Shown: positions 1-15,959 of the stretch, piece after piece
How positions within the stretch are numbered: the first letter of the stretch is position 1
How the letters are laid out: each line of letters opens with the position of its first letter
Virus record (IMG/VR): IMGVR_UViG_3300027749_000049
Span: 1 to 64,000 of that record
From: a virus
DNA length: 64,000 nt
Reading direction: 5' to 3' (one strand)
Notes under the pieces: model-generated
What the model was told of the DNA's origin: nothing
Database searches by the model: none
What the model saw: the letters and a program-made list of their open reading frames with translations, nothing else
Program-made: the position numbers and the translations under genes

Positions 1-1665
1 TCTTCTGGAACTGCTGGTACTTCAGGTTCTTCTGGTTCAACTGGTAGTTCTGGAACATCAGGTTCTAATGGATCTAACGGCTCATCAGGAACAAGCGGAA
101 CCTCAGGCTCTTCAGGTTCTTCTGGTTTAACCGGTAGCTCAGGAACTTCAGGTTCAAGCGGATCTAATGGTTCTTCAGGAACATCAGGTTCAAGTGGAAC
201 TTCTGGATCAAATGGAAGCTCAGGAACTAGTGGAACGTCAGGTTCTAGTGGATCGAATGGTTCATCTGGTACAAGTGGTTCTTCAGGTTCAAACGGTAGC
301 TCTGGAACATCAGGAACTTCTGGTTCAAGCGGATTAACAGGTTCTTCTGGAACTTCAGGCTCTTCAGGTTCAAACGGTTCAAGTGGAACTAGTGGTACTT
401 CAGGCTCAAGCGGTTCTAACGGAAGCTCAGGAACATCAGGTTCTAATGGCTCAAGCGGAACTGCTGGTACTTCAGGAAGTTCAGGCTCAAATGGTTCAAG
501 TGGTACGTCAGGTACATCAGGTTCTAATGGATCAAACGGAAGCTCAGGAACTTCAGGTTCAAACGGTTCTTCTGGTACGTCAGGTACTTCAGGTTCTAAT
601 GGATCAAATGGTTCAAGCGGTACTTCTGGTACATCGGGAACTTCAGGAGCAAATGGAGCAAACGGTTCATCAGGAACTTCCGGTTCAAATGGTTCTTCTG
701 GAACTTCAGGTTCTAATGGATCAAACGGCTCAAGTGGAACTTCAGGTTCTAACGGATCAAATGGATCAAGCGGTACGTCAGGTTCTAATGGAAGCTCAGG
801 AACATCTGGGTCAAACGGTTCTTCCGGAACAAGTGGAACATCAGGAACTTCAGGTTCAAACGGCTCTTCTGGAACTTCAGGTTCAAATGGTAGCTCAGGA
901 ACTTCAGGTACTTCTGGCTCAAATGGTTCTAGTGGATCTTCTGGTACTTCAGGTTCAAATGGATCTAATGGAAGCTCAGGAACTTCAGGTTCTAATGGCT
1001 CAAACGGTTCTAGTGGAACTTCAGGAACATCTGGTTCAAACGGCTCTTCTGGAACTGCTGGTACTTCAGGTTCTTCTGGTTCAACTGGTAGTTCTGGAAC
1101 ATCAGGTTCTAATGGATCTAACGGCTCATCAGGAACAAGCGGAACCTCAGGTTCAAATGGCTCTAACGGTAGCTCTGGTACTTCTGGAACTTCAGGTTCA
1201 AGCGGATCTAATGGTTCTTCAGGAACATCAGGTTCAAGTGGTTCTAACGGCTCAAGTGGTACTTCTGGTTCTAGTGGAAGCTCTGGCTCAAACGGTTCTT
1301 CGGGAACTTCAGGTTCTTCCGGTTCAAACGGTTCTAGTGGAACTTCTGGTTCTAGTGGATCAAACGGTAGCTCAGGTTCTAATGGTTCTAGTGGAACAAG
1401 TGGAACCTCAGGTTCTAATGGTAGCTCAGGTTCTAATGGTTCTTCTGGTACTTCTGGCTCAAATGGATCTAACGGAAGCTCAGGAACTTCTGGTTCAAAT
1501 GGTTCTTCTGGAACAAGTGGAACCTCAGGTTCTAATGGTAGCTCAGGCTCAAATGGTTCTAGTGGAACCTCTGGTACTTCTGGTTCTTCTGGAACTTCTG
1601 GTACACGCGGAACTTCTGGTACTTCTGGAACTAGCGGTTCTTCCGGAACTTCTGGAACAAGTGGA
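1..1665 (+). repeat. Coding tandem repeat block 1 (GlySerSer/GlyThrSer/GlySerAsn 9-nt units)
   Basis: Degenerate 9-nt units such as ggttcttct, ggaacttca and ggttcaaac; includes an exact 107-nt duplicate (1-107 = 1045-1151). Confidence 0.9.
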
Positions 1666-4029
1666 TTATCTGCTTCTCCTCCAGCAAACTCTTTGATTTA
1701 TAATAATTGGGGTAGTTATTCAGCAGGTGGATGGTCATCTACTGGATCAGTCGGTCAACCTTTATCAGCATTCGCATTTATAGCATTCTATGAAACAAGT
1801 CTTATTGATTATATAGGTACTGCTGGATCTACTGGAAATGCTGCTAGCTTCTTTACCGGTCTTGCAATTGGTGATAAGATCCAACTTTATTATGTTGACG
1901 GCACCGGCTACGGTATTTACAATGTAACTTCAACTGCTTCACTTTCATTAGGTATGTATACAATTGGTGTTTCAGTTATATCTACTACTGGCACTGTTCA
2001 AGCTAAAAATATGACTGTGTCATATGTAGTTAGCGGAACTTCCGGTACTGCTGGTACGTCAGGTTCATCTGGTACTTCAGGAACACGTGGTACTTCAGGT
2101 ACTTCCGGTACATCAGGTTCAAACGGTTCTTCAGGAACAAGCGGTACATCTGGCGCAAACGGTGCTAACGGTTCTTCAGGAACAAGTGGAACATCAGGTT
2201 CTTCAGGTTCTAACGGTTCAAATGGCTCAAGTGGTACTTCAGGAAGTTCAGGCTCAAATGGTTCTAATGGTTCTTCCGGAACTAGCGGAACCTCAGGTTC
2301 AAGCGGTAGTTCAGGAACATCAGGAACCTCCGGTTCAAGCGGAACCGCTGGAACATCAGGAACGTCCGGTAGTTCAGGTTCTAACGGTTCTAGTGGAACA
2401 TCAGGTTCTAATGGAAGCTCTGGCTCAAATGGTAGTTCAGGAACATCTGGTACTTCTGGAGTAAATGGAGCTAATGGTACATCAGGCACAAGTGGTACAT
2501 CAGGTTCTTCAGGGTCAAACGGTTCTTCTGGTTCAAGCGGAACTTCAGGTTCTAGTGGATCAAACGGAAGCTCGGGATCAAACGGAAGTTCTGGTACCTC
2601 AGGTAATACCGGTTCTTCTGGAACTTCAGGTTCGAGCGGATCGAATGGCTCAAACGGTTCAAGTGGAACTTCTGGTTCTAGTGGCTCAAACGGTTCGTCG
2701 GGAACATCAGGTTCAAGCGGATCGAATGGTAGTTCTGGAACTTCAGGTTCTTCAGGCTCAACCGGCTCTTCAGGTACAAGTGGAGTTTCTGGTGCATCAG
2801 GTACGTCCGGCACCTCTGGAACAAGTGGTACTTCAGGTACGTCCGGGTCAAACGGTTCAAGCGGAACTTCGGGTACATCTGGAAGCTCAGGTAATACTGG
2901 TTCTTCAGGAACTTCAGGCTCAAGTGGCTCAAACGGTTCAAGTGGAACTGCTGGAACATCAGGTTCTAATGGTTCAAGCGGAACTTCAGGAACATCAGGA
3001 GCTAATGGAGCTAATGGTTCTTCTGGAACAAGTGGTACCTCTGGAGCAAATGGAGCTAACGGTTCGTCTGGAACAAGCGGAACTTCAGGTGCAAATGGTG
3101 CTAATGGAACAAGTGGAACTTCAGGTGCAAATGGAGCTAATGGAACAAGCGGAACTTCTGGAACTTCAGGTGCAAACGGTTCAAGTGGTACTTCAGGTGC
3201 AACTGGAGCTAACGGTTCTTCTGGAACTTCAGGAGCAAATGGTGCTAATGGTTCAAGCGGTACGTCAGGCGCAAACGGAGCTAATGGTTCAAGCGGTACT
3301 TCAGGTGCAAATGGAGCTAATGGTTCAAGCGGTACTTCTGGATCTAGTGGAACTTCTGGAAGAGCTGGAGGAAATGGTACTGACGGAAGCTCAGGAACTT
3401 CTGGAGCAAATGGTGCTAATGGTACAAGCGGTACTTCTGGAGCAAATGGTGCTAATGGTACATCAGGCACAAGCGGTACTTCCGGTGCAACTGGTGGAAG
3501 CGGTTCTTCTGGAACGTCAGGAACACGAGGTACCTCTGGTACTTCAGGAACAAGCGGAAGTTCAGTAGTAATATCACTTACGGCTGGAAAAATTCCTAAA
3601 ACAAATACAGGCGGAGCAACCTTAACTGACAGTATTATTACAGAGGCTAGCGGAAAGATCGGAGTTGGAATTAGCCCAACCACTTATGTATTTGAAGTAG
3701 CTGGTGATATTTATGCTAGTTCTAATATTATTGCATATTCAGATCGATCAGTTAAAGATAATGTGAAGACCATCACTGATGCTCTAGATAAGGTAACATC
3801 AATGAGAGGCGTTACATTCACCAGAAATGATCAAAAAGATACGACACGGATTCATGCGGGTGTTATTGCTCAGGAAATGGAAATGGTATTCCCAGAAGTT
3901 GTATTTGAAAATGCGGATGGTACCAAGGCAGTTGCCTATCCAGCCCTTGTGTCGGTTCTAATTGAGGCAATCAAGCAACAGCAACACCAAATTGATGACT
4001 TAAGGGATCAAATTGAAAAATTATTATAA
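1..4029 (+). CDS. Tail fibre-like protein, 5'-partial: Gly-X-Y (GSS/GTS/GSN/GAN) repeats plus C-terminal peptidase S74 intramolecular chaperone
   Basis: Frame 1 is open from base 1 and continuous with the called ORF at 1693 (TTG in the same frame). Gly occurs every third residue over ~1-1665 and ~2032-3561. The C-terminus SDRSVKDNV...RGVTF...GVIAQE...VAYPALVSVLIEAIK plus coiled coil is the S74 chaperone signature. Confidence 0.88.
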   Translation, partial: SSGTAGTSGSSGSTGSSGTSGSNGSNGSSGTSGTSGSSGSSGLTGSSGTSGSSGSNGSSGTSGSSGTSGSNGSSGTSGTSGSSGSNGSSGTSGSSGSNGSSGTSGTSGSSGLTGSSGTSGSSGSNGSSGTSGTSGSSGSNGSSGTSGSNGSSGTAGTSGSSGSNGSSGTSGTSGSNGSNGSSGTSGSNGSSGTSGTSGSNGSNGSSGTSGTSGTSGANGANGSSGTSGSNGSSGTSGSNGSNGSSGTSGSNGSNGSSGTSGSNGSSGTSGSNGSSGTSGTSGTSGSNGSSGTSGSNGSSGTSGTSGSNGSSGSSGTSGSNGSNGSSGTSGSNGSNGSSGTSGTSGSNGSSGTAGTSGSSGSTGSSGTSGSNGSNGSSGTSGTSGSNGSNGSSGTSGTSGSSGSNGSSGTSGSSGSNGSSGTSGSSGSSGSNGSSGTSGSSGSNGSSGTSGSSGSNGSSGSNGSSGTSGTSGSNGSSGSNGSSGTSGSNGSNGSSGTSGSNGSSGTSGTSGSNGSSGSNGSSGTSGTSGSSGTSGTRGTSGTSGTSGSSGTSGTSGLSASPPANSLIYNNWGSYSAGGWSSTGSVGQPLSAFAFIAFYETSLIDYIGTAGSTGNAASFFTGLAIGDKIQLYYVDGTGYGIYNVTSTASLSLGMYTIGVSVISTTGTVQAKNMTVSYVVSGTSGTAGTSGSSGTSGTRGTSGTSGTSGSNGSSGTSGTSGANGANGSSGTSGTSGSSGSNGSNGSSGTSGSSGSNGSNGSSGTSGTSGSSGSSGTSGTSGSSGTAGTSGTSGSSGSNGSSGTSGSNGSSGSNGSSGTSGTSGVNGANGTSGTSGTSGSSGSNGSSGSSGTSGSSGSNGSSGSNGSSGTSGNTGSSGTSGSSGSNGSNGSSGTSGSSGSNGSSGTSGSSGSNGSSGTSGSSGSTGSSGTSGVSGASGTSGTSGTSGTSGTSGSNGSSGTSGTSGSSGNTGSSGTSGSSGSNGSSGTAGTSGSNGSSGTSGTSGANGANGSSGTSGTSGANGANGSSGTSGTSGANGANGTSGTSGANGANGTSGTSGTSGANGSSGTSGATGANGSSGTSGANGANGSSGTSGANGANGSSGTSGANGANGSSGTSGSSGTSGRAGGNGTDGSSGTSGANGANGTSGTSGANGANGTSGTSGTSGATGGSGSSGTSGTRGTSGTSGTSGSSVVISLTAGKIPKTNTGGATLTDSIITEASGKIGVGISPTTYVFEVAGDIYASSNIIAYSDRSVKDNVKTITDALDKVTSMRGVTFTRNDQKDTTRIHAGVIAQEMEMVFPEVVFENADGTKAVAYPALVSVLIEAIKQQQHQIDDLRDQIEKLL
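2032..3561 (+). repeat. Coding tandem repeat block 2 (GSS/GTS/GAN units)
   Basis: Same 9-nt periodicity, shifting to GANGANGSSGTS units after ~3000. Confidence 0.9.
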
Positions 4030-4032
4030 TTA

Positions 4033-4728
4033 ATGCCAACCACAATAGTAGGAGCATCTAGCGGTCAAATGTCTATTCAGGATGCAGGCAATGACACGAG
4101 ATCAATTGCAGCAATCTTAACCCAGACGACTGGAAGCGGTAGCAACACCGGTGTTCGTCCAAATAAAACCGGCCTGCCAGAGTTTTATTGGTCATTTACC
4201 AATGTCGGTGGTTCTGGTGCTGGAAATTTTTATATTAATCGTAATGACCCTCAAGGTTTAGCCTATTGGACCCAAGCCTATACCGGCTACCCCATCGGAT
4301 TTGACCAATTTTATAATTATGATCATTGGTCTGATAAACATTACTATGATGGGCAGATTTCAGTAACCTCGCCTTTTGCAGTACAGGTGGACCTATCGTT
4401 AGACGATTCATTCCAAGGCCCTTCTACCTATATGTCTAATACGTATAGTACTGGGCCAGGGCAATCACTAACTGGTGGACTTACTTTATATAATTATCAA
4501 CACACCTATCCAAATACCCCATTTAACGTGCATCAAATTAGGCTAACCAGTCTTGCACCTCCTGGTCCAATGATAAGTGTAAATACGCTTGATGTAACTG
4601 ACCTTGATACTGGAGCTACAATTGCCTCGTTCGGCGGTGGAACTATATTAGCTCCAGGTGCACCGAAGGATTTTAACCATAAATTACCATTTAATGGTAG
4701 ATATTATATTACAATTAATATTGCCTAA
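4033..4728 (+). CDS. Hypothetical virion/tail-fibre-associated protein
   Basis: 231-aa Gly/Thr/aromatic-rich, beta-type ORF starting 3 nt after the fibre stop. Confidence 0.65.
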   Translation: MPTTIVGASSGQMSIQDAGNDTRSIAAILTQTTGSGSNTGVRPNKTGLPEFYWSFTNVGGSGAGNFYINRNDPQGLAYWTQAYTGYPIGFDQFYNYDHWSDKHYYDGQISVTSPFAVQVDLSLDDSFQGPSTYMSNTYSTGPGQSLTGGLTLYNYQHTYPNTPFNVHQIRLTSLAPPGPMISVNTLDVTDLDTGATIASFGGGTILAPGAPKDFNHKLPFNGRYYITINIA

Positions 4729-4747
4729 ACTAAAAATAAATAAAGAT

Positions 4748-4987
4748 ATGACCACAGATATTCAAAACTATTCAGTACTTGGTAAAACTGCAACAAGTAT
4801 TAAATTTATACCCGTAACCTATGAATTGGGTTCAACTGCAGTTTCGGTAATTTATCAATTAATGGATAGCGGCAATGCAATCATATGCACAGGCTCAATT
4901 AAATTAACTGATATATCAGATTGGGGTACAAATGACTCAGTCATTGTTACTAAAGTCTTAACTGCACTAGGCTTAACCACCGCATAA
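4748..4987 (+). CDS. Small hypothetical tail-fibre accessory protein
   Basis: ATG at 4748, in frame with the called 4658 ORF and just after ATAAATA at 4736-4742; WG.ND motif. Confidence 0.6.
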   Translation: MTTDIQNYSVLGKTATSIKFIPVTYELGSTAVSVIYQLMDSGNAIICTGSIKLTDISDWGTNDSVIVTKVLTALGLTTA

Positions 4988-5053
4988 TTTTTTTTAAGAC
5001 TACATAACCTTATTGCCAAACTTTAGTATAAAATAAAAAGTTTAGCAAAAGGC

Positions 5054-7864
5054 ATGTCAATTAAAATTAAAGCGCACACCTCAATTATTGGGGAAACTGG
5101 TTACAACTGTCATTCTAGAAATTTCTTTAAAGCCCTAAATTCTCTAGAAGATTTACAGGTTGATGCCAGAAATTGGACAGTAGGTTCAACCTGGACAGGT
5201 TACAATAATGATGAACCTCATAATGATGAGTACTATATTGATACTGAGTTAAAAACAATCCTAACTCAACAAACTCTACAGACCCCAAACGGTTCACAAG
5301 AGTTTCCACTATATCAAAACTATCAAAATCCTGGAAAACCTGATGTTCACATTGTCTTAAATGATGTTAATCATAAATATTTTGGTGATAAGTATGATGG
5401 CCCAAAAATTGCCTATAATGTTTGGGAAACTACCAAATATCCTGATGATTTTTTTAATAAACTAAAAACATTTGATCAGGTTTGGGTTCCAAGCAGCTGG
5501 CAAAAAGAGTGCACGGTTGCTCAAGGTATCAGAGCAGATAAAGTAAAGGTTGTACCTGAGGGAGTTGATACCCAAATGTTTAAACCGCTTTCGCAAGAGA
5601 CCTCATTTCCAAAAGGTCGCCCATTCAAATTTGTTTTAGTTGGGCGTTGGGAATATCGCAAATCGACTAAAGAGATTATAAAGGCATTCATTGATACCTT
5701 TTCAGAAGATGAAAATGTTGAGCTTATCTTAAATGTTGAAAATCCATTTGCAAATGATGACTGTTCAAATACTCAAGAACGCCTTGCCAAATTTGGCTTA
5801 GCACATAGAGGTATTAAGATACTTACTCATTTAAGCAAAGCCGACTATGTAGCATTATTACAAACGGCTGATGTCTTTGTTTCTTGTGCTCGTAGTGAAG
5901 GTTGGAATCTTCCATTAATTGAGGCAATGGCCTGCGGTACCCCATCAATCTATTCTAATTGGGGAGCTCAATTAGAATTTGCCGCAGGTAAAGGTTTGCC
6001 GGTAGCAACCCATGGAGAAGTTCCAGCTGGTGTTGCAAATGATGAATCCTGGAATCCAAATGCTCCAGGTAATTTTGTTGAGCCAAACTTTGAAGACCTT
6101 AAACTTAGACTTAGAGAAGTTTATGATAATTATGAAATTTATAAAAAATCCGCGCTAATGGAATCAAAACAAATCCGAACTCAATTCACTTGGGAAAATG
6201 CAGCAAAAATCGCACAAGATCACATCCAGGAACTTATTCAACCTGAGGTAAATGAATACTCAACTGACTTTGCATGGGTGACCTGTGGTAACCTGGCATA
6301 TATGCCGATCATTCAGAAATTAGCTGAATCGCTATTGGAATTCTCAAATCGTAAACTTATTGTTTATGGAATTGACTGTGATGTTCCATTTGACTATTTG
6401 CCAAATGTAATTGCCCGAAAATTAACAATTCCATACTATTCAAACTATGATAAATGGTATTGGAAGCAATATGCCTGTCTTGCAGCATTTAACGAAAGTT
6501 TTGAAAATTTTGTTTGGCTAGACGGTGATATTATTGCAAACCATACAATTGATAAATTAGCAGATCATTTTGCAAATATTGAGAATTATCCATTAGCTGA
6601 TATTCATGTACAGGAAGATTTTATTGGATATTATACAAAACCAGACGGGTCAAGAGGTCAGCAGCTATTTAATGAAAATCTATGCAAAGCCAAAGGCGTT
6701 AATCGTCTTGCGACTAAAGCCCATATTTGCATGTACTTATACAATCGAAATTGCGAATGGTGGTTTAATGAAATCTTAAATGTATATAAAGAAACTGCTC
6801 TTACTGACTATCCAAGTTTACTGCAATGGAATGATGAAGGTATTGATAATTACCTAAGATGCAAATACGGTTATAATAAGTTTTTACCAATTTCAAATTT
6901 TGATGTTTCTGAATGGGATGGTGATTTACTTGGAACAACCGGCAAAGCAATGGAACACTTTATTTCTTTTTGGAGAGATCAAGGCCCTAAGAATTTTGGA
7001 AAAGTATACGGTTGGCAGTTTATCCCAAAGAATAAAGATCAAATCCTATACTTTCATGGAAATAAAAATCTAGGCTTTGCTCAAATTATGATTGACCATA
7101 TTAAAGCTCAAAGAGACCAGAATTTCCATGATACTGAATATTTCTTTGTTGCTAAAGATGAAATTAAAAATTTAGGTTCAATCAAAAAAGTAGAAGGTGG
7201 TACAATGGATATTGCCTATAAATACGGATGGGATTATGCAATTTATCATGAAATTTATAACCTAACTGATTACGAACATCCTCATCGCTCAGAAAATCCA
7301 GTTGTTAAAATCCAACCAGGAGATGTAGTTGTTGATCTTGGTGGAAATATTGGAATTTTTACTCGGTATGCATACCATATGGGAGCAAGTAAAATTGTAA
7401 CATTTGAACCTGATCGTAGATATTTTGAGATCCTAAAACAAAATGCTCCAGCAAATGCCATCCTATTTAATGCAGCAATTGGAGATCAGTTAGGAACCCT
7501 AACCTTAACTGAAAGTTCTCACTTGGGCGGCTCTAACCTATGGCATCAAAAGGATCCAACTCTTACTCAATACGATGTTAATCTATACACATTAGACTAT
7601 ATTTTAGATAACGGGCTAATTGACAGAATTGACTTCTTAAAGGTAGATATTGAAGGTTCTGAAATTATTGCACTAAAAGGTATCAGTGATGCTAACTTAG
7701 CTAAGATCCGAAATGTTGCAGTTGAATATCATCATGAGCACCTTAATTTTAATGATGAGCTACGCAATGAATTTATTGGCAGATTTAACAGATTAGGTTT
7801 TAATTCCTACCTATTATTTTGCGGCCCAAACAATGCACTACAATTAATTTATTTTTGGAAATAA
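5054..7864 (+). CDS. Multidomain glycosyltransferase: GT4 (GT-B) + GT-A-like domain + FkbM-family methyltransferase
   Basis: GT4 motif RSEGWNLPLIEAMACG; central DxD (WLDGD) and YFHGNK; C-terminal VVDLGGNIG...FLKVDIEGSE...VEYH typical of FkbM. Confidence 0.85.
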   Translation: MSIKIKAHTSIIGETGYNCHSRNFFKALNSLEDLQVDARNWTVGSTWTGYNNDEPHNDEYYIDTELKTILTQQTLQTPNGSQEFPLYQNYQNPGKPDVHIVLNDVNHKYFGDKYDGPKIAYNVWETTKYPDDFFNKLKTFDQVWVPSSWQKECTVAQGIRADKVKVVPEGVDTQMFKPLSQETSFPKGRPFKFVLVGRWEYRKSTKEIIKAFIDTFSEDENVELILNVENPFANDDCSNTQERLAKFGLAHRGIKILTHLSKADYVALLQTADVFVSCARSEGWNLPLIEAMACGTPSIYSNWGAQLEFAAGKGLPVATHGEVPAGVANDESWNPNAPGNFVEPNFEDLKLRLREVYDNYEIYKKSALMESKQIRTQFTWENAAKIAQDHIQELIQPEVNEYSTDFAWVTCGNLAYMPIIQKLAESLLEFSNRKLIVYGIDCDVPFDYLPNVIARKLTIPYYSNYDKWYWKQYACLAAFNESFENFVWLDGDIIANHTIDKLADHFANIENYPLADIHVQEDFIGYYTKPDGSRGQQLFNENLCKAKGVNRLATKAHICMYLYNRNCEWWFNEILNVYKETALTDYPSLLQWNDEGIDNYLRCKYGYNKFLPISNFDVSEWDGDLLGTTGKAMEHFISFWRDQGPKNFGKVYGWQFIPKNKDQILYFHGNKNLGFAQIMIDHIKAQRDQNFHDTEYFFVAKDEIKNLGSIKKVEGGTMDIAYKYGWDYAIYHEIYNLTDYEHPHRSENPVVKIQPGDVVVDLGGNIGIFTRYAYHMGASKIVTFEPDRRYFEILKQNAPANAILFNAAIGDQLGTLTLTESSHLGGSNLWHQKDPTLTQYDVNLYTLDYILDNGLIDRIDFLKVDIEGSEIIALKGISDANLAKIRNVAVEYHHEHLNFNDELRNEFIGRFNRLGFNSYLLFCGPNNALQLIYFWK

Positions 7865-7873
7865 CTAAACAAT

Positions 7874-8569
7874 ATGATAACGACCTTTAAGCAAGACCCT
7901 GAAATACTTAACTCAATTAGTCCAAAAAACTATTTAGAGAGTTATTTTATAAACAATGAAAAACGAAAAATTCATAAATGGTTTCACTATTTAGAAATCT
8001 ATGAGGCTCACTTTAGTAAATTTAGAGATACTCCAGTAAATATCCTTGAGATTGGAATTGACAATGGAGGCTCGTTACAAATGTGGAAAGACTATTTTGG
8101 TAAAAACTGCAAGATCTATGGAATTGATATTCTTGAAAAATGTAAAGAGTATGAAGATGATCAAATTAACATAATTATCGGATCTCAAGAAGATCGTAAT
8201 TTTTGGAAAACCGTAAAGGATACTTGTCCAAAATTTGATATTATAATAGATGATGGAGGTCATACTATGAATCAACAAGTAATTACTTACGAAGAAATGT
8301 TTCCATTTTTAAATGACAATGGTGTCTATTTATGCGAAGATGTGCATACCTCATATTGGCCTGGAGAATATGGTGGAAGTTATAAAGGAAATACCTTCAT
8401 TGAATATTCTAAAAATTTCATAGACTATTTACATGCATCATATTCATCAGCCATACCTAAAACCTATTCAGGAGATAATATCCACGGTATTCATTATTAC
8501 GATAGTATGATAGTAATTGAAAAACGAAAAAAGCCACAAATATTTCATACTGTTACTGGAAAAATATAA
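7874..8569 (+). CDS. Class I SAM-dependent methyltransferase (sugar O-methyltransferase-like)
   Basis: LEIGIDNGGSLQMW, YGIDI, DIIIDDGGH and CEDVHTSY motifs. Confidence 0.85.
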   Translation: MITTFKQDPEILNSISPKNYLESYFINNEKRKIHKWFHYLEIYEAHFSKFRDTPVNILEIGIDNGGSLQMWKDYFGKNCKIYGIDILEKCKEYEDDQINIIIGSQEDRNFWKTVKDTCPKFDIIIDDGGHTMNQQVITYEEMFPFLNDNGVYLCEDVHTSYWPGEYGGSYKGNTFIEYSKNFIDYLHASYSSAIPKTYSGDNIHGIHYYDSMIVIEKRKKPQIFHTVTGKI

Positions 8570-8576
8570 ATTAACT

Positions 8577-9209
8577 ATGCAAAGATACGATATAATAAAC
8601 GAATTAATTCTAAAAAATGGTTTTACCAAATATTTAGAAATTGGAGTTAGGGAGCCTAATGACTGCTTTAACTTAATTAATATTAATACAAAACATTCAG
8701 TTGATCCATGTTTTGAAGTTGATGCTCAAATCGACTATAAACAGACATCTGACCAATTCTTTAGGTCATTAAGAGATTCCGAATTAAATTTAGACCCTAA
8801 TTATAAATGGGATATTATTTTTATTGACGGCCTTCATGAGTCTGACCAAGTTGACCGAGATATTGAAAATTCGCTAGCGCATCTTAGTCCAACTGGCTAT
8901 ATTGTTTTACATGACTGTAATCCACCAACAATCCATCATGCTCGGGAAGATTTTTACGATCACTCTACTCCAGCCGAAGGTAATTGGAATGGAACTGTTT
9001 GGAAAGCAATATATAAGTATCGAGCAACCAGACCGGATCTTGAAATTTTTACAATTGATACAGATTGGGGCGTTGGTATTATTAAACACGGTTTTCAAGA
9101 ATGTTGCGATTTTGACAATCCATACTATGAGTACAATAAATTTAACAATGAACGTGGCCTCTACTTAAACTTAATTAGCGTAGACGAGTTTTTAAAAAAT
9201 AAACTATAA
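8577..9209 (+). CDS. Class I SAM-dependent methyltransferase (Methyltransf_24-like)
   Basis: YLEIGV, DIIFIDGLH, IVLHDCNP and WNGTVWKA motifs; start moved to the ATG at 8577. Confidence 0.85.
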   Translation: MQRYDIINELILKNGFTKYLEIGVREPNDCFNLININTKHSVDPCFEVDAQIDYKQTSDQFFRSLRDSELNLDPNYKWDIIFIDGLHESDQVDRDIENSLAHLSPTGYIVLHDCNPPTIHHAREDFYDHSTPAEGNWNGTVWKAIYKYRATRPDLEIFTIDTDWGVGIIKHGFQECCDFDNPYYEYNKFNNERGLYLNLISVDEFLKNKL

Positions 9210-9212
9210 TAA

Positions 9213-11987
9213 ATGGCACATAAAGAACAGCAAGATTTTTGTAAAAAGATCAAATTAAATTTTCCAAAATACTTCCAAAATAAAAAAGTATTAGATATTG
9301 GATCACTTGATGTTAATGGAAATAATCGTTTTCTATTTGATAATTGTAACTATATTGGATTAGATGTTGGTGATGGCGCTAATGTTGATGTAGTAGTCCC
9401 AGGGAATCTATATGATGCACCATCTGAGCAGTTTGATGTAATTATTTCAACTGAAGTATTTGAACACGATCTATATTATGAAACTACTATTCAAAATATT
9501 ATTCGTATGTTAAAGCCAGGTGGAATGTTTATTTTTACTTGTGCATCAGGTCAAAGACCTGAACATGGAACTAGAAGACGTGGAGAAAGGGATGCTCCAT
9601 TATTAATTCAACAATCAAGCGAATGGGCTGACTATTATAAAAATCTTGAAGCTGACGATTTTTTAAAAATTAATGGATTTGAAACCGCTTTTCCAGATGG
9701 AGTATTTGAATACGGTTCACATGGTAGCTATAATCATGAATGGCAAAATCCAGACATGCAAAATATACATTCAGATATTTACTTCTTTGGGGTTAAAGGT
9801 GGAATTGCAAATGACCTAAAATATTCAGCGGATAACAGGCCTTCGATAATCAGACCGAATGAATATCCTGATGATATTTTTGTTGTTGACACTTGGCCAA
9901 ATACTCCAGAAAAAGAATCAGACCTAATTGAATGTATTAAAAAGCTTAGAGAATTTTCAGGAATTCCAATCTTGTTAGTTTCGCATTATGCAATCAAACC
10001 TGAAATTCAAAAATTAGTTGATTATTACATATATGATAAAGAAAATCCACTGCTATTAAATTCTGAATTTGAAGAATATGCAGTTGGTAGTGGAAGATGG
10101 TGTACATTTGGAAAAACCAGAGTAGACAATCAAATGGAATATCATCATGATTATGCAATTTGGAGATCAATGACCCATGCCTTTAATTTCTGTAAGTATC
10201 TAGGAAAGAAGATGATTCACTTTATGGAATACGATAATCTGCTTGATACTTTTCAATATCGCCAAGCCTTCTTGGAAAGAGCTCACCAGCATGATGCAGT
10301 AATTTATGAATACCATTCTGGTTCAGCAAAGGATACTCACCTAGCTAAATTTATGGCAACCTTTATTTTCTCAATTAAAACTGAGGTTGCTCTAAATATC
10401 ATAAATGAAGTAAAGACAAAAAAGGAATACTTCATGGGTCGCCCAAACGGTTGGCAGTTAGAAAGAGTATTCCTGCACTATTTAGAAAAACACGCAAAGG
10501 ATATTTGGTTAACTAATTATATTGCAAATTCAAATGAATTAAATACTCAAGCAGTTTGGAATAGAGATGGTATTCTAAGAGATGACGCTAAATTTCAAAT
10601 TTATACAGCAGCTGACGATTTTAATAATTTATATGTGCAACTTGTTTCAGGATTTCATGATGAACCTGCAACCAAAGATTACCTACTTGAAATCAAATAT
10701 AATGGAACCGTACAGTTTACGACTCTTAAAAAGGGCGACTTTTTACTTATTAAATTAGGCGAATACTGTAAAGGCTATACCGTAACTGTTAATTATTTAG
10801 GTAAATGCGCATTCACTCAATTTTTAAGTGATGATTTCCAAACTTTTGCAAAAATGAATCATGTAACAATTGACGGAGTTCAGCCACTGCCTACTGTAAA
10901 TCATAATTTAGTAGACGGCCCGTTTGTTGAATTGAAAACTACAAGTCCAATGAAATATCAAGTAGAGTTTATTGATAATGAAACTGACAAATTAGTTTAT
11001 TCAACAAAATTAAGTGGCGGAACTTGGGCAAAAAGTGCAATCAAATATTTTAAAGATTGGAAAATTAAAGTTAAGGACCAAAGCGGAAATCCGGTAATAA
11101 TATTTAATACTGACCTAAAAGGTAAACGTGTCTATATTCCATTAGAGTCAAAAGCACTAGGTGATACCTTAGCATGGTTTCCATATGTTGAAGAATTTAG
11201 AAAGAAGCACGATTGTATTATGATCTGTTCAACTTTCTGGAATCAATTATTTAAAGATACTTATCCAAATATTGAATTAATTGAACCGGGTCAAATGGTA
11301 ACTAATTTACATGCAATGTACCGAATAGGCTGGTTCCATAATGGCGATAATATTGATCTTGAAAAAAATCCTAGCGATTTTAAATTAGGTCCATTACAAA
11401 GAACTGCGACCGATATTTTAGGATTAGAATATAAAGAGATTAAACCAATTATTAATTATCCAACTGGTCCAGTAGTTAAGAAAAAAGTAGGCCTTGGAAT
11501 TCACAGTACTGCTCAAGCAAAATATTGGAATAATCTAACTGGTTGGCAAGAAGTTACAGATTGGTTAATTGCAAACGGTTATGAACCGGTAGTATTATCT
11601 AGAGAAGAAGACGGCTATATGGGAAATCGTAATCCAGTTGGAGCCGCTAAACTTGAAGCTGGTACAATTGACCGAGTAATTACTGAATTAACTGAATGCG
11701 CTGCTTTTATTGGAATTAGTAGTGGATTGACTTGGTTAGCTTGGGTAACAAATACTCCAAGTATTCAAATCTCCGGTTTTACTGAACCTTATAATGAACC
11801 AGATGGCGGTATTATTAAATTAGCTGCACCAACTGGCGCGTGTTCAGGTTGTGCAAATCGATTAAGGCTCAATGCTGGTGATTGGAATTGGTGCCCAGAT
11901 CAAAAAGGTACACCTCGTCAATTTGAATGTTCAAAATTGATCACAGCTGATCAGGTAATTGAAAAGTTAAAGACAATTCTAATATAG
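9213..11987 (+). CDS. Fusion: SAM methyltransferase + GT-like domain + Aah/TibC (autotransporter O-heptosyltransferase)-like glycosyltransferase
   Basis: N-terminal VLDIGSLDVNG...STEVFEHD. C-terminal ALGDTLAWFPYVEEF, AKYWNN..GW, FIGISSGLTWLAW and C-x2-C-x13-C-x11-C ending TPRQFEC, resembling the TibC iron finger. Confidence 0.8.
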   Translation: MAHKEQQDFCKKIKLNFPKYFQNKKVLDIGSLDVNGNNRFLFDNCNYIGLDVGDGANVDVVVPGNLYDAPSEQFDVIISTEVFEHDLYYETTIQNIIRMLKPGGMFIFTCASGQRPEHGTRRRGERDAPLLIQQSSEWADYYKNLEADDFLKINGFETAFPDGVFEYGSHGSYNHEWQNPDMQNIHSDIYFFGVKGGIANDLKYSADNRPSIIRPNEYPDDIFVVDTWPNTPEKESDLIECIKKLREFSGIPILLVSHYAIKPEIQKLVDYYIYDKENPLLLNSEFEEYAVGSGRWCTFGKTRVDNQMEYHHDYAIWRSMTHAFNFCKYLGKKMIHFMEYDNLLDTFQYRQAFLERAHQHDAVIYEYHSGSAKDTHLAKFMATFIFSIKTEVALNIINEVKTKKEYFMGRPNGWQLERVFLHYLEKHAKDIWLTNYIANSNELNTQAVWNRDGILRDDAKFQIYTAADDFNNLYVQLVSGFHDEPATKDYLLEIKYNGTVQFTTLKKGDFLLIKLGEYCKGYTVTVNYLGKCAFTQFLSDDFQTFAKMNHVTIDGVQPLPTVNHNLVDGPFVELKTTSPMKYQVEFIDNETDKLVYSTKLSGGTWAKSAIKYFKDWKIKVKDQSGNPVIIFNTDLKGKRVYIPLESKALGDTLAWFPYVEEFRKKHDCIMICSTFWNQLFKDTYPNIELIEPGQMVTNLHAMYRIGWFHNGDNIDLEKNPSDFKLGPLQRTATDILGLEYKEIKPIINYPTGPVVKKKVGLGIHSTAQAKYWNNLTGWQEVTDWLIANGYEPVVLSREEDGYMGNRNPVGAAKLEAGTIDRVITELTECAAFIGISSGLTWLAWVTNTPSIQISGFTEPYNEPDGGIIKLAAPTGACSGCANRLRLNAGDWNWCPDQKGTPRQFECSKLITADQVIEKLKTILI

Positions 11988-12625: not shown

Positions 12626-14059
12626 TTATGCATTTTGATCAACGAATCCAAAACAAACTGTACAATAATATTCTGAAACAGTATAGACGAAACTTACAAT
12701 TTGTACGGTACCGTCTATTCGAATAATATTAAATCCTTCTGTTCCAGTAAACTGAGTGTATTGAGTTCCATTAACTGCATTTTGATAGGTTGTAGCCTGT
12801 GAAAAAATTGGTGTAAATGGCGCAGATACTTGAACTGGTACAGATAAACTTCCATTACCAACACTAGCAAATGCAACTAGTGGATCGGTAACCGGTTGGC
12901 TAAATATTGCTGTAAATGTTCCAGCTGCTTGATTTAAAATTTGAATACCATTAAATGGTACTCCGTATTGTTCAGGAAAAGTATTTGCGGCGTACATACC
13001 GCTATGTTGTCCCATACCGCCTCCGCTTTGACTAATTGTAATACCTATTGAGTTTTGACCTACTCCTGATGCTGAACTTCCGGTAACCGAACCAATTGTC
13101 ATCCATTGAAATCCTGAACTTCCAAAATTTGACCAATTATTCCAATACCCATTTGCGGTTAACCAGGTACTTGCAGCATTGCCGCTTATAAAAACTTGGC
13201 CACTTATGCTATTTGCAACTTCAATAAAACTGGCTTCGGTTAGTGAAGTTGACCTATTAAATCCAACTGCTGCAACTTCTTCACCTAAAAATTTAAAATT
13301 GCTTGGGGTTCCATATGCTGCGGTATTTTGTATTGTCATTGTACCTTCATATCCAGGACATAATACTGGATAAAAAGGCCCGCCAATAATCTCAATACCA
13401 TAAGCATTAGTTGCTGGGTCGGCACTAGGGTTATTATTCCAAAGACCACCATTTACTCTAACCCACATACCATTAAGGTTACTATCAATCACCACATCAA
13501 TAATATTATTATGCGTCCAAGGTTCTAAACCTGAGATGGTTTCAATACCGTTGTACCAAATGGTTCCATCACTACGATAACCCATACTAAAACCATCATT
13601 ACCGGGATATCCACCATATGGATTACCTTGATAATTCATGAATTGATAACCAATACCAATAAAGTGAGAATTTGCTAGAACTCCTGGATTTGACAAACTA
13701 ACCAGTACACTAAACATAATTTTGTCAGTAGATTTAATTTCATTAACCCCTAATACTGATTGTTGGTAACCAAATTGTTGATGAGCTATTTGAAGCGGTG
13801 ATCCGCTTAAATTTATATCTGTTCCTTTATGCGTATTATCCAAATACAGGTAACTTGAGGCTGGCGTAGGTTGAGTATTATTTGGCACAGTATGCGCAAT
13901 AACATAGCCCAGATCCTGATCTGGACCTTGCCACCATTGAACTCCACCTGGAGAAGTTGTATAATCTAGGTCGGCTACACTAATTGCTAAATCTCCAACT
14001 TGATCTGTTCCAGCAATTGGAGAACCTGGATTATATGAAAACGATTTTGATGTTGACAT
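12626..14059 (-). CDS. Putative virion surface protein with SPRY/ConA-like beta domain
   Basis: Gly/aromatic-rich; FSMGYRSDGTIW...IIDVVID...MWVRVNGGLW...FYPVL resembles SPRY. Confidence 0.55.
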   Translation of the reverse strand: MSTSKSFSYNPGSPIAGTDQVGDLAISVADLDYTTSPGGVQWWQGPDQDLGYVIAHTVPNNTQPTPASSYLYLDNTHKGTDINLSGSPLQIAHQQFGYQQSVLGVNEIKSTDKIMFSVLVSLSNPGVLANSHFIGIGYQFMNYQGNPYGGYPGNDGFSMGYRSDGTIWYNGIETISGLEPWTHNNIIDVVIDSNLNGMWVRVNGGLWNNNPSADPATNAYGIEIIGGPFYPVLCPGYEGTMTIQNTAAYGTPSNFKFLGEEVAAVGFNRSTSLTEASFIEVANSISGQVFISGNAASTWLTANGYWNNWSNFGSSGFQWMTIGSVTGSSASGVGQNSIGITISQSGGGMGQHSGMYAANTFPEQYGVPFNGIQILNQAAGTFTAIFSQPVTDPLVAFASVGNGSLSVPVQVSAPFTPIFSQATTYQNAVNGTQYTQFTGTEGFNIIRIDGTVQIVSFVYTVSEYYCTVCFGFVDQNA

Positions 14060-14883: not shown

Positions 14884-15537
14884 TTAATTAGTTGGACTCT
14901 TCCTACCTAGGACATATCCGATTGTTAGATATGACTCAACTGCTGACTTGCTAACTTTTATTGCACCAATAGTTGGATGATAGACCCATTTTGTTCCAAA
15001 TTGGCTATTGTTTTCTCCTAATTGACTAATTGAATTCGCTAGTCCTATTTTTGATTTAGTTTCAACATTATGAGATTTACCGGTCCAATCGTAAGTTTTT
15101 TGCCAGTTAAGATGAGTTCCAGCAGCTTTAGCGTCAGTATGATACTTAGTCATGCGCTCGCTAGCTAATCTTGATTTAGTAGGGTTGTTTGATAAACCGC
15201 CGGCTGCTGAACACTTGAGTTGATGTTCAATTGAAATAAACCCATGCCAGCCTTCTCCGCCCTTAACTAAATTCATGCACATAGGATCAGATAATAGTGA
15301 TTCATTTACTAACTCTCTTTCTCGATTAGCTAGAGATTTTCTATCTGGTAAAAATTCAAGTATTTCCCTAGCGTGATTTTCTTTTCCGTGGTAATTTATA
15401 GAATGCCACAACTTTTTTCCACTACCTAAATATGAATCTTCTATTTTTGGAGTAGAATGCATGCCAATATAATAACGACCGGTTATTAAGCATGTTGTTT
15501 TGTAGATAAAGTGGTATTTATGTTTTGATTGAGCCAT
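14884..15537 (-). CDS. GIY-YIG (Seg-like) homing endonuclease with NUMOD3-like motif
   Basis: FIYKTT...YYIGMH...YLGSG...E...N catalytic pattern; GKSHNVETKSKI NUMOD3-like segment. Confidence 0.85.
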   Translation of the reverse strand: MAQSKHKYHFIYKTTCLITGRYYIGMHSTPKIEDSYLGSGKKLWHSINYHGKENHAREILEFLPDRKSLANRERELVNESLLSDPMCMNLVKGGEGWHGFISIEHQLKCSAAGGLSNNPTKSRLASERMTKYHTDAKAAGTHLNWQKTYDWTGKSHNVETKSKIGLANSISQLGENNSQFGTKWVYHPTIGAIKVSKSAVESYLTIGYVLGRKSPTN

Positions 15538-15583: not shown

Positions 15584-15595
15584 AAGGTTGTGGTG

Positions 15596-15959
15596 TGGAG
15601 ATAGGCGGAATCGAACCGCCGTCCAAAAAACCTCTAATTAAACTTTCATTTACACGCTTAGTCCATTTTTCTAATTGGACGAAATATCTTATTCTTTAAC
15701 GACTTAAAGCTAAAGTCAGTAACGGTTCGACTTGGCCGCTACGCCATGCTGGTTTTGCAACTTTGGTTAGTCAAGCAGTTGCCGCTTGGTCACTTATGCA
15801 GCTAAAAGCTCTTCAGTAACAGGAGTGTTAACGCCTTGGTTAACTAGGCTCCAGAAAGTAGTGTTGCCACTTATTGTTTGTAATACATTTTAACGAGTCT
15901 TAGCATCATCCTCGGCGTGCAAGCGTAACCGATAATCTTTGTCAAAACCGGTTATCCCC
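15596..15959 (-). ncRNA. ssrA: tmRNA (transfer-messenger RNA)
   Basis: 5' GGGGATAACCGGTTTTGAC; 3' T-arm GGCGGTTCGATTCCGCC then TATCTCCA. Acceptor stem has the G3.U70 Ala identity pair. Internal tag ORF at 15868-15794 reads GNTTFWSLVNQGVNTPVTEELLAA*. Confidence 0.95.

Follow-up and report, generated by a model that had tools for sequence, protein, structure and literature searches.

A predicted TibC-like O-glycosylation system beside a serine/threonine-rich Gly-X-Y fibre gene of a large phage

The window analysed here, the first 64,000 nucleotides of the IMG/VR virus record IMGVR_UViG_3300027749_000049, is the first half of a linear virus contig of 128,004 bases with an estimated completeness of 46%. 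It opens with a fibre gene composed largely of Ser/Thr-rich Gly-X-Y triplets. The cluster after this gene comprises four glycosyltransferase (GT) and four methyltransferase (MTase) domains; its final domain is a homologue of the Escherichia coli glycosyltransferases TibC and Aah. We estimate a probability of about 0.73 that the TibC-like domain primes serines of the repeats in the cytoplasm, while GT-A, GT8-like, and GT4 domains extend the glycan and the MTases cap it. Glycosylation of the Ser/Thr repeat by the TibC-like enzyme had been proposed in an initial annotation of the window and is strongly supported, by inference: the domain is homologous to an enzyme proven to O-glycosylate Ser, and it co-occurs with the repeats in controlled comparisons. 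The pairing of fibre and enzyme is real and robust by comparative genomics; the biochemistry is predicted.

The fibre gene and the TibC-like domain

The features of the fibre gene and of the TibC-like domain, which is located at the C-terminal end of the open reading frame (ORF) starting at position 9213, are as follows (aa, amino acids):

1..4029, plus strand: fibre gene, predicted acceptor (Collagen PF01391, PHROG tail fibre families), 5' end open
7..1671, plus strand: Gly-X-Y run 1, aa 3-557, 185 triplets (GTS/GSS/GSN), no Pro
1672..2034, plus strand: insert of 121 aa without repeats that separates the two runs, no family match
2035..3564, plus strand: Gly-X-Y run 2, aa 679-1188, 170 triplets (GTS/GSS/GAN/GSN)
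3739..3903, plus strand: Peptidase_S74 intramolecular chaperone, aa 1247-1301 (E 3.9e-15)
10908..11978, plus strand: TibC/Aah-like GT-B domain (TIGR04414 260.3 bits; 4RAP E 9e-50)
11841..11930, plus strand: iron-finger motif C-x2-C-x13-C-x11-C (C877, C880, C894, C906), predicted iron binding

Both Gly-X-Y runs are uninterrupted and sum to 355 triplets or 1065 residues, which bears out the fibre of more than 1000 GSS/GTS/GSN residues described in the initial annotation. The runs contain the triplets GTS (130), GSS (109), GSN (65), and GAN (25), with Ser (177) and Thr (140) at position X and Ser (243) and Asn (92) at position Y; the whole ORF of 1342 aa includes 450 Ser and 178 Thr. Gly keeps a strict three-residue phase through all 185 and 170 triplets and is nearly absent at X and Y. 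Pro, Lys, and Glu are missing from the runs, and charged residues are almost nil. All six Ser codons are in use, and the repeat is therefore not a simple DNA repeat; this explanation and an assembly artefact were both rejected in view of the varied codons and of open frames conserved in relatives. Long stretches with Gly in each third position and a chaperone domain at the C-terminus are features of collagen-like trimeric fibres, Peptidase_S74 being a mark of trimeric phage fibres. The stabilisers of such fibres, Pro or hydroxyproline and KGD/KGE salt bridges, are absent from the runs.

No other Gly-X-Y runs are present in the 128-kb contig, and the fibre ORF is open at its 5' end, where the contig begins at window base 1. 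What the contig start cut off is visible in the close relative G090 (TibC-like domain 96% and terminase 98% identical), which possesses four repeat genes in tandem; they encode 542, 2432, 3192, and 2654 aa and comprise approximately 2150 triplets. The counterpart of the window's fibre gene is the one encoding 2654 aa. For the 121-aa insert, neither a family nor a relative was found.

The initial annotation had suggested a comparison of the C-terminal domain of ORF 9213 with TibC. The domain proved to be a homologue, which exceeds the TIGR04414 cut-off of 200 bits and shares 33-37% identity with enterobacterial plasmid members. According to the accessible text of PMC4358343, the key elements of TibC are D110, T226, K230, R286, W305, the four Cys of the iron finger, and F265/V266, a hydrophobic pair on the beta-hairpin thumb that serves the TibC dodecamer. 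Kept in the phage domain are D651 (D110), T766 (T226), K770 (K230), and W841 (W305), as well as the four-Cys motif, which had already been noticed from the letters and was confirmed. Changes were found at R286 (V822) and P300 (S836). The thumb is three residues shorter than in TibC, with Tyr-Met aligned to the F265/V266 pair. The N-terminal beta-barrel PF21129 was matched below its cut-off (E 0.004), and the alignment to TibC starts at TibC residue 39. Judged by its residues, the TibC-like domain looks active, and the ADP-heptose determinant is gone: Arg286 of TibC reads the adenine, and its exchange for Ala abolishes most of the activity (PMC4358343, accessible text).

A quick IQ-TREE phylogeny (SH-aLRT support only) of 182 domains, which were collapsed at 85% into 95 rows, is split into a canonical clade of 35 rows, which includes an E. 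coli Aah homologue, and a clade of 60 rows with the window protein (support 100). Arg286 is found in 35 of 35 canonical rows vs. 2 of 60 rows of the window-protein clade; an Arg one residue before V822 in the window protein is not conserved (4/60 clade rows). Because two tested features of the BAHT heptosyltransferases fail, namely Arg286 and the autotransporter partner, the enzyme is placed in a sister clade of this family and not among its members. Since Arg286 is lost, we infer a donor nucleotide sugar other than ADP-heptose, which strengthens the earlier caveat that the donor need not be heptose. A true heptosyltransferase using host ADP-heptose is unlikely. The TIGR04414 score, the retained T226, K230, and W305, and the Ser at position 300, as in AAH, would fit such an enzyme, whereas Val replaces the adenine-reading Arg, which is absent from 58 of the 60 clade rows. 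In addition, the contig contained no gmhA or rfaE match, a result that at 46% completeness is uninformative about phage-made heptose for the whole genome.

Co-occurrence of enzyme and repeat in phages and bacteria

The initial annotation had asked whether such fibres and enzymes co-occur across phage genomes. They are enriched together, although some enzymes were found without repeats and some repeats without the enzyme. Among the best 80 of 244 viral matches to the TibC-like domain (36 groups at 90% identity), 57 loci had, within 10 kb, a run of 12 or more Gly-X-Y triplets in which Ser/Thr made up at least 60% of the X and Y positions. For the reverse test, contigs were sampled by the GTS/GSS pattern and control contigs by a Gly-Pro-Thr pattern. 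A TibC-like gene was located within 10 kb in 8 of 59 GTS contigs vs. 0 of 77 Gly-Pro-Thr contigs (p 0.0009), whereas the GT2-TPR family was found in 0 of 59 vs. 24 of 77 (p 3e-7); both p values serve as a guide only, the contigs not being independent. The GT2-TPR enzymes, which presumably resemble spore-collagen glycosyltransferases, were detected at L276:4034-5095 and in 23 other control contigs, and their position near Gly-Pro-Thr collagen likely reflects a parallel fibre-glycosylation system.

For whole records, 120 GTS contigs and 77 controls were ranked by length; the top 50 of each set yielded 44 and 46 records, respectively, one of them belonging to both sets. A TibC-like match was present in 23 of 44 GTS records vs. 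0 of 46 Gly-Pro-Thr collagen records and, among records at least 90% complete, in 6 of 8 vs. 0 of 11. As background, only 4 of 50,697 annotated phage records have a TibC-like match, and three of these (two of three distinct genomes) carry repeats nearby. In Microcystis phage Mel-JY01, GTS runs are located 2.5 kb upstream of a GT4-GT-MTase-TibC fusion, and a 735-kb phage has short repeat runs near its TibC-like gene. The repeat genes of Mel-JY01 (L081:1-2300, PP395634.1) have GTS/GSS frames open on the plus strand, and hypothetical proteins are annotated there on the minus strand; one plus-strand repeat ORF occupies the region 836-2176. A blastn search with the repeat against annotated phages returned the 735-kb phage and two weak Erwinia matches and missed Mel-JY01; it is too insensitive for counts. 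An estimated 4200 IMG/VR stretches match the repeat pattern.

As a lineage control, the 14 longest contigs of 78 terminase relatives were searched. The enzyme was found in eight and the exact repeat pattern in four, all of which are among those eight. Of the other four enzyme carriers, the contigs of G101 and G104 break off within a repeat gene, that of G094 stops 2 kb upstream of the gene, and the enzyme copy of G105 is short, divergent, and located elsewhere. Enzyme and repeats are both absent in the remaining six. The corresponding slot was read in four of these (G096, G097, G098, and G102; terminase 68-69%): the order of wedge, sheath stabiliser, and tube is preserved, the upstream fibres end in S74 and lack Ser/Thr triplet runs, and blastp against the window proteins, run without a Pfam scan, gave no match to the window's enzymes. 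The 2432-aa repeat gene of G090 and a repeat-free gene of 308 aa in G096 have a common fibre anchor (54% over 80 aa).

On the tree, a repeat neighbour accompanies 44 of the 60 rows of the window-protein clade (10 loci short, 6 without) and none of the 35 canonical rows (21 without, 14 short). The closest chromosomal homologues are stand-alone genes amid housekeeping genes, beside secreted (GTS)n, (GTT)n, or (GSS)n proteins; distant ones are often found beside large Ser/Thr/Gly-rich adhesin-like ORFs. Some rows from metagenome-assembled genomes are probably mis-binned phage. Within a methanotroph set of 151 genomes (the family of Methylomicrobium lacus), 23 encode a TibC homologue and 11 show the repeat pattern. 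Ten of these 11 also encode the enzyme; in the last one, the stretch matching the pattern includes stop and Cys codons. Three of the 23 homologues are of the canonical type; in the other 20 genomes, the enzyme gene adjoins a signal-peptide Ser/Thr-tract protein in 17 cases, and three loci are short. G147 and G174 have further repeat genes hundreds of kb from the enzyme. In Burkholderiaceae, one partner is a lipoprotein (L377:11199-11387) made up almost entirely of a signal peptide and a GTS/GSS tract, and its repeat lies 113 bp from the enzyme ORF. Because the chromosomal bacterial loci lack the window's other enzymes (no match at 8 of 8), the minimal unit is the enzyme plus a Ser/Thr-tract protein.

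The cluster could instead modify host surface polysaccharide or lipopolysaccharide (LPS), for receptor masking or superinfection exclusion, and merely lie in a variable module beside the fibres, as the initial annotation had cautioned. Polysaccharide loci typically encode GT4, GT8-like, FkbM, and sugar-MTase domains, LPS heptosyltransferases have a fold related to that of TibC (PF01075 and TIGR02193 match the domain weakly), and some homologues lack repeats. We consider this explanation highly improbable: the stand-alone bacterial enzymes beside secreted Ser/Thr-tract proteins, the unlinked extra repeat genes of G147 and G174, and the association of different GT types with different collagens, which weaken the earlier caveat, would all be left unexplained, and the genes lie on one strand between fibre and tail-tube genes.

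The 82 N-x-S/T sequons in the fibre ORF agree with the many sequons claimed in the initial annotation. They are probably incidental, because 16 of 38 partner loci have fewer than two sequons per 100 triplets. N-glycosylation at NGS sequons as the main route was rejected, as no N-glycosyltransferase family match was found and many partners are devoid of sequons.

Several observations weigh against fibre glycosylation by the TibC-like enzyme. The control records are shorter and come from other phage lineages, and 21 of the 44 GTS records, mostly fragments, have no TibC-like match. No repeats were detected in three carriers of a TibC-like gene, namely the fragment G105, LR756504 (636 kb), and G092 (85% complete), and the only run in G093 is rich in GAQ (37% Ser/Thr). 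In G006 (84% complete), long GTS fibres are present and a TibC-like match is missing. A single event may underlie the state of all four sister phages, the repeat itself led to six of the 44 tree rows counted as repeat-positive, and the tree is a quick version with SH-aLRT support only. Three of the 17 methanotroph partners are poly-Ser-like and not Gly-X-Y; because such partners exist, the Gly-X-Y phase is not required in the partner. Three bacterial partners are Thr-dominated at Y, yet TibC modified Ser and not Thr (PMC4358343, accessible text). Furthermore, glycan, activity, and virion localisation are all predicted. G032 (98% complete, no enzyme) was rejected as a further counter-example, since it has only a 12-triplet GTT run.

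Accessory enzymes and the predicted glycan

Six ORFs lie downstream of the fibre gene up to the end of the TibC-like domain:

4033..4728, plus strand: 231-aa ORF of no family, product likely associated with the fibre
4748..4987, plus strand: 79-aa ORF, no family
5054..7864, plus strand: 936-aa fusion of GT4 (GT-B), GT8/glycogenin-like GT-A, and FkbM methyltransferase (PF00534 E 5e-13; PF05050 E 2e-16)
7874..8569, plus strand: class I MTase (Methyltransf_24), akin to macrolide-sugar O-methyltransferases (3SSM E 3e-26; 8IA9 E 4e-24)
8577..9209, plus strand: class I MTase (Methyltransf_24; E 5.8e-9)
9213..11987, plus strand: 924-aa fusion of N-terminal MTase, GT-A/nucleotidyltransferase-fold domain, beta-rich segment, and TibC-like domain

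The GT4, GT-A, and FkbM parts of ORF 5054 and the two class I MTases had been named in the initial annotation and are upheld by the domain matches. In the middle domain of ORF 5054 (about aa 406-735), the DxD motif is conserved (D96 and D98 nearly invariant), and the structural model (pLDDT 79.9) matches glycogenin (E 9e-8) and other GT8-like enzymes. The relatives of ORF 7874 are 3SSM, which we take to be MycE, and the demethylmacrocin O-methyltransferase 8IA9. MycE/TylE-type enzymes methylate macrolide sugars, whereas a fibre glycan would be the putative substrate of ORF 7874. ORF 8577-9209 had no match in the PDB. For ORF 9213, described earlier as an MTase-GT-TibC-like fusion, the MTase and TibC-like parts held. 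Its middle domain (about aa 215-460; model pLDDT 79.1) has a GT-A-type fold with mannosylglycerate synthase as match (Z 14.8, root-mean-square deviation 3.4, 177 aligned residues), IspD-type nucleotidyltransferases tie, and no sequence match was found in the PDB; the fold match cannot separate a glycosyltransferase from a nucleotidyltransferase.

The accessory set is variable among phages and had no match at the eight chromosomal bacterial loci. Each of seven domains was found in 0-16 of 32 viral loci (single-sequence search), which suggests glycan diversification. Locus L007, with a 96% identical TibC-like domain, has no match to the MTase of 8577-9209, suggesting rapid swapping of accessory genes.

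In the proposed mechanism, the TibC-like domain of ORF 9213 would transfer the first sugar onto serines, perhaps also threonines, of the fibre repeats in the cytoplasm of the infected cell, before or during fibre assembly. The GT-A, GT8-like, and GT4 domains would then extend the glycan, and the methyltransferases would methylate or cap it; both roles fit the domain types. We predict that the finished virion bears a trimeric whisker, long and coated with glycans, whose sugars may help the Pro-free and charge-free Gly-X-Y chain to fold or to stay soluble and may also mask the particle or aid adhesion.

It is very unlikely that another enzyme, either an HPAT-like upstream gene product or one of the GT-A domains, primes the fibre and that the TibC-like domain acts later or on another virion protein. 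In G090, the fibre array is immediately preceded by an ORF of 317 aa (L451:15402-16355) that is a weak HPAT-type lead, one look-alike cluster of this ORF carries the HPAT family PF23452 on 10% of its members, and the GT8-like domain resembles the self-priming glycogenin in fold. However, no more than 8 of 80 records yielded an HPAT-like gene, each of them together with a TibC-like gene, and the chromosomal bacterial cassettes consist of TibC-like gene and partner with none of the window's other enzymes (0/8).

A role of TibC-type glycosylation in folding is plausible by analogy, because Pro and Lys-Asp/Glu bridges, the usual collagen stabilisers, are absent and galactosylation takes (Gly-Pro-Thr)10 from coil to triple helix (PMC11923368, accessible text). 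The glycosylated repeat may instead be a flexible mucin-like chain or a polyglycine-II bundle, which we regard as possible, if less than even in probability. The lack of Pro and of almost all charge, which leaves the runs without either stabiliser, would be in agreement with such a structure, as would the bacterial partner tracts, which are short and in 3 of 17 cases poly-Ser. The strict three-residue spacing of Gly in both runs (185 and 170 triplets), its near absence from the X and Y positions, the terminal S74 chaperone, and the effect of galactosylation on (Gly-Pro-Thr)10 argue for the collagen triple helix.

A more far-reaching picture is put forward tentatively. A widespread group of large aquatic phages would build whiskers of several hundred nm from a Pro-free, charge-free serine collagen that folds only once glycosylated by the TibC sister enzyme, exchangeable GTs and MTases would provide a phage-specific methylated coat, and in bacteria the same enzyme would form a portable two-gene tag-and-writer for Gly-Thr-Ser.

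Related systems and genomic context

The closest known systems are TibC-TibA and Aah-AIDA-I of E. coli (BAHT; PDB 4RAP and 4RB4; PMC4358343, accessible text), with which the phage enzyme shares the homologous GT-B domain, the catalytic Asp, the Thr, Lys, and Trp that bind phosphate and sugar, the four-Cys iron finger, and a gene adjoining a repetitive Ser-rich partner. In contrast to these, it belongs to a separate clade, lacks Arg286, has the shorter thumb, is phage-encoded, and is fused to other enzymes; its partner is a Gly-X-Y phage fibre amid tail genes and not a beta-helix autotransporter. Virion glycosylation by phage glycosyltransferases is known from mycobacteriophages (Freeman et al. 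2023, cited in PMC12619734). According to the accessible text, the glycans are located there at capsid and tail-tube C-termini, whereas here hundreds of sites in the fibre and a TibC-like enzyme are predicted. PMC12619734 describes four core glycosyltransferases in large aquatic phages, and its accessible text contains neither "heptos-" nor "collagen". Thr-glycosylated collagens are Bacillus BclA and a vent-worm cuticle collagen (cited in PMC11923368, accessible text). As predicted for the fibre, O-glycans replace hydroxyproline at Gly-X-Y positions; these collagens carry Pro in the X and Thr in the Y position, whereas the fibre has Ser/Thr at X, Ser/Asn at Y, and no Pro. The phages of the Gly-Pro-Thr control set have GT2-TPR enzymes instead of TibC-like ones. 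No paper on phage TibC homologues or a Gly-Ser/Thr-Ser acceptor was found in a search that left most subscription journals and supplements outside.

If true, the range of TibC-type O-glycosylation would widen beyond pathogen adhesins to include virus particles as well as environmental bacteria, and a new class of acceptor would be added. It would explain the stability of phage Gly-X-Y fibres without proline or salt bridges and give a job to the common, unexplained glycosyltransferase clusters of large aquatic phages. The system is carried by the cultured phage Mel-JY01 and by two-gene cassettes of methanotrophs and is thus directly testable. A soluble enzyme writing sugars on a simple (GTS)n tag might also be a tool for glycoengineering.

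On the 3' side of the cluster, genes for tail tube, sheath stabiliser, baseplate wedge, and terminase were identified; the source virus is therefore a large T4-like myophage with the cluster within its tail module. All cluster genes are on one strand, between the fibre and tail-tube genes. The host was not established, the best SmpB and sigma matches being on a single 254-kb contig in a Bacteroidetes bin, which is probably a mis-binned relative of the window phage. A scan for promoters and terminators was at chance level (56 vs. 50.4 and 5 vs. 6.4, respectively). One RNA run (0.07 of words present, only short mixed contigs) provided no evidence of expression.

A 477-aa ORF of no family (window 12626-14059, minus strand) is located between tail tube and sheath stabiliser, and its N-terminus is similar by eye to ORFs at G000:C1:113655 and 114540. 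A transfer-messenger RNA (tmRNA) gene (window 15595-15959, minus strand) forms a complete trans-translation pair with SmpB (G000:C1:92118-92540, above the NCBIfam cut-off), and a weak SegE-type GIY-YIG endonuclease (window 14884-15537, minus strand) lies beside the tmRNA gene. Two genes of the sigma-70 family were found at G000:C1:71874-72824 and 74612-75340. A second, unlinked glycosylation cluster (G000:C1:93918-95992, L367:10918-12992) comprises a GT2, a class I MTase, and a weak TOD1/MUCI70 glycosyltransferase-like match.

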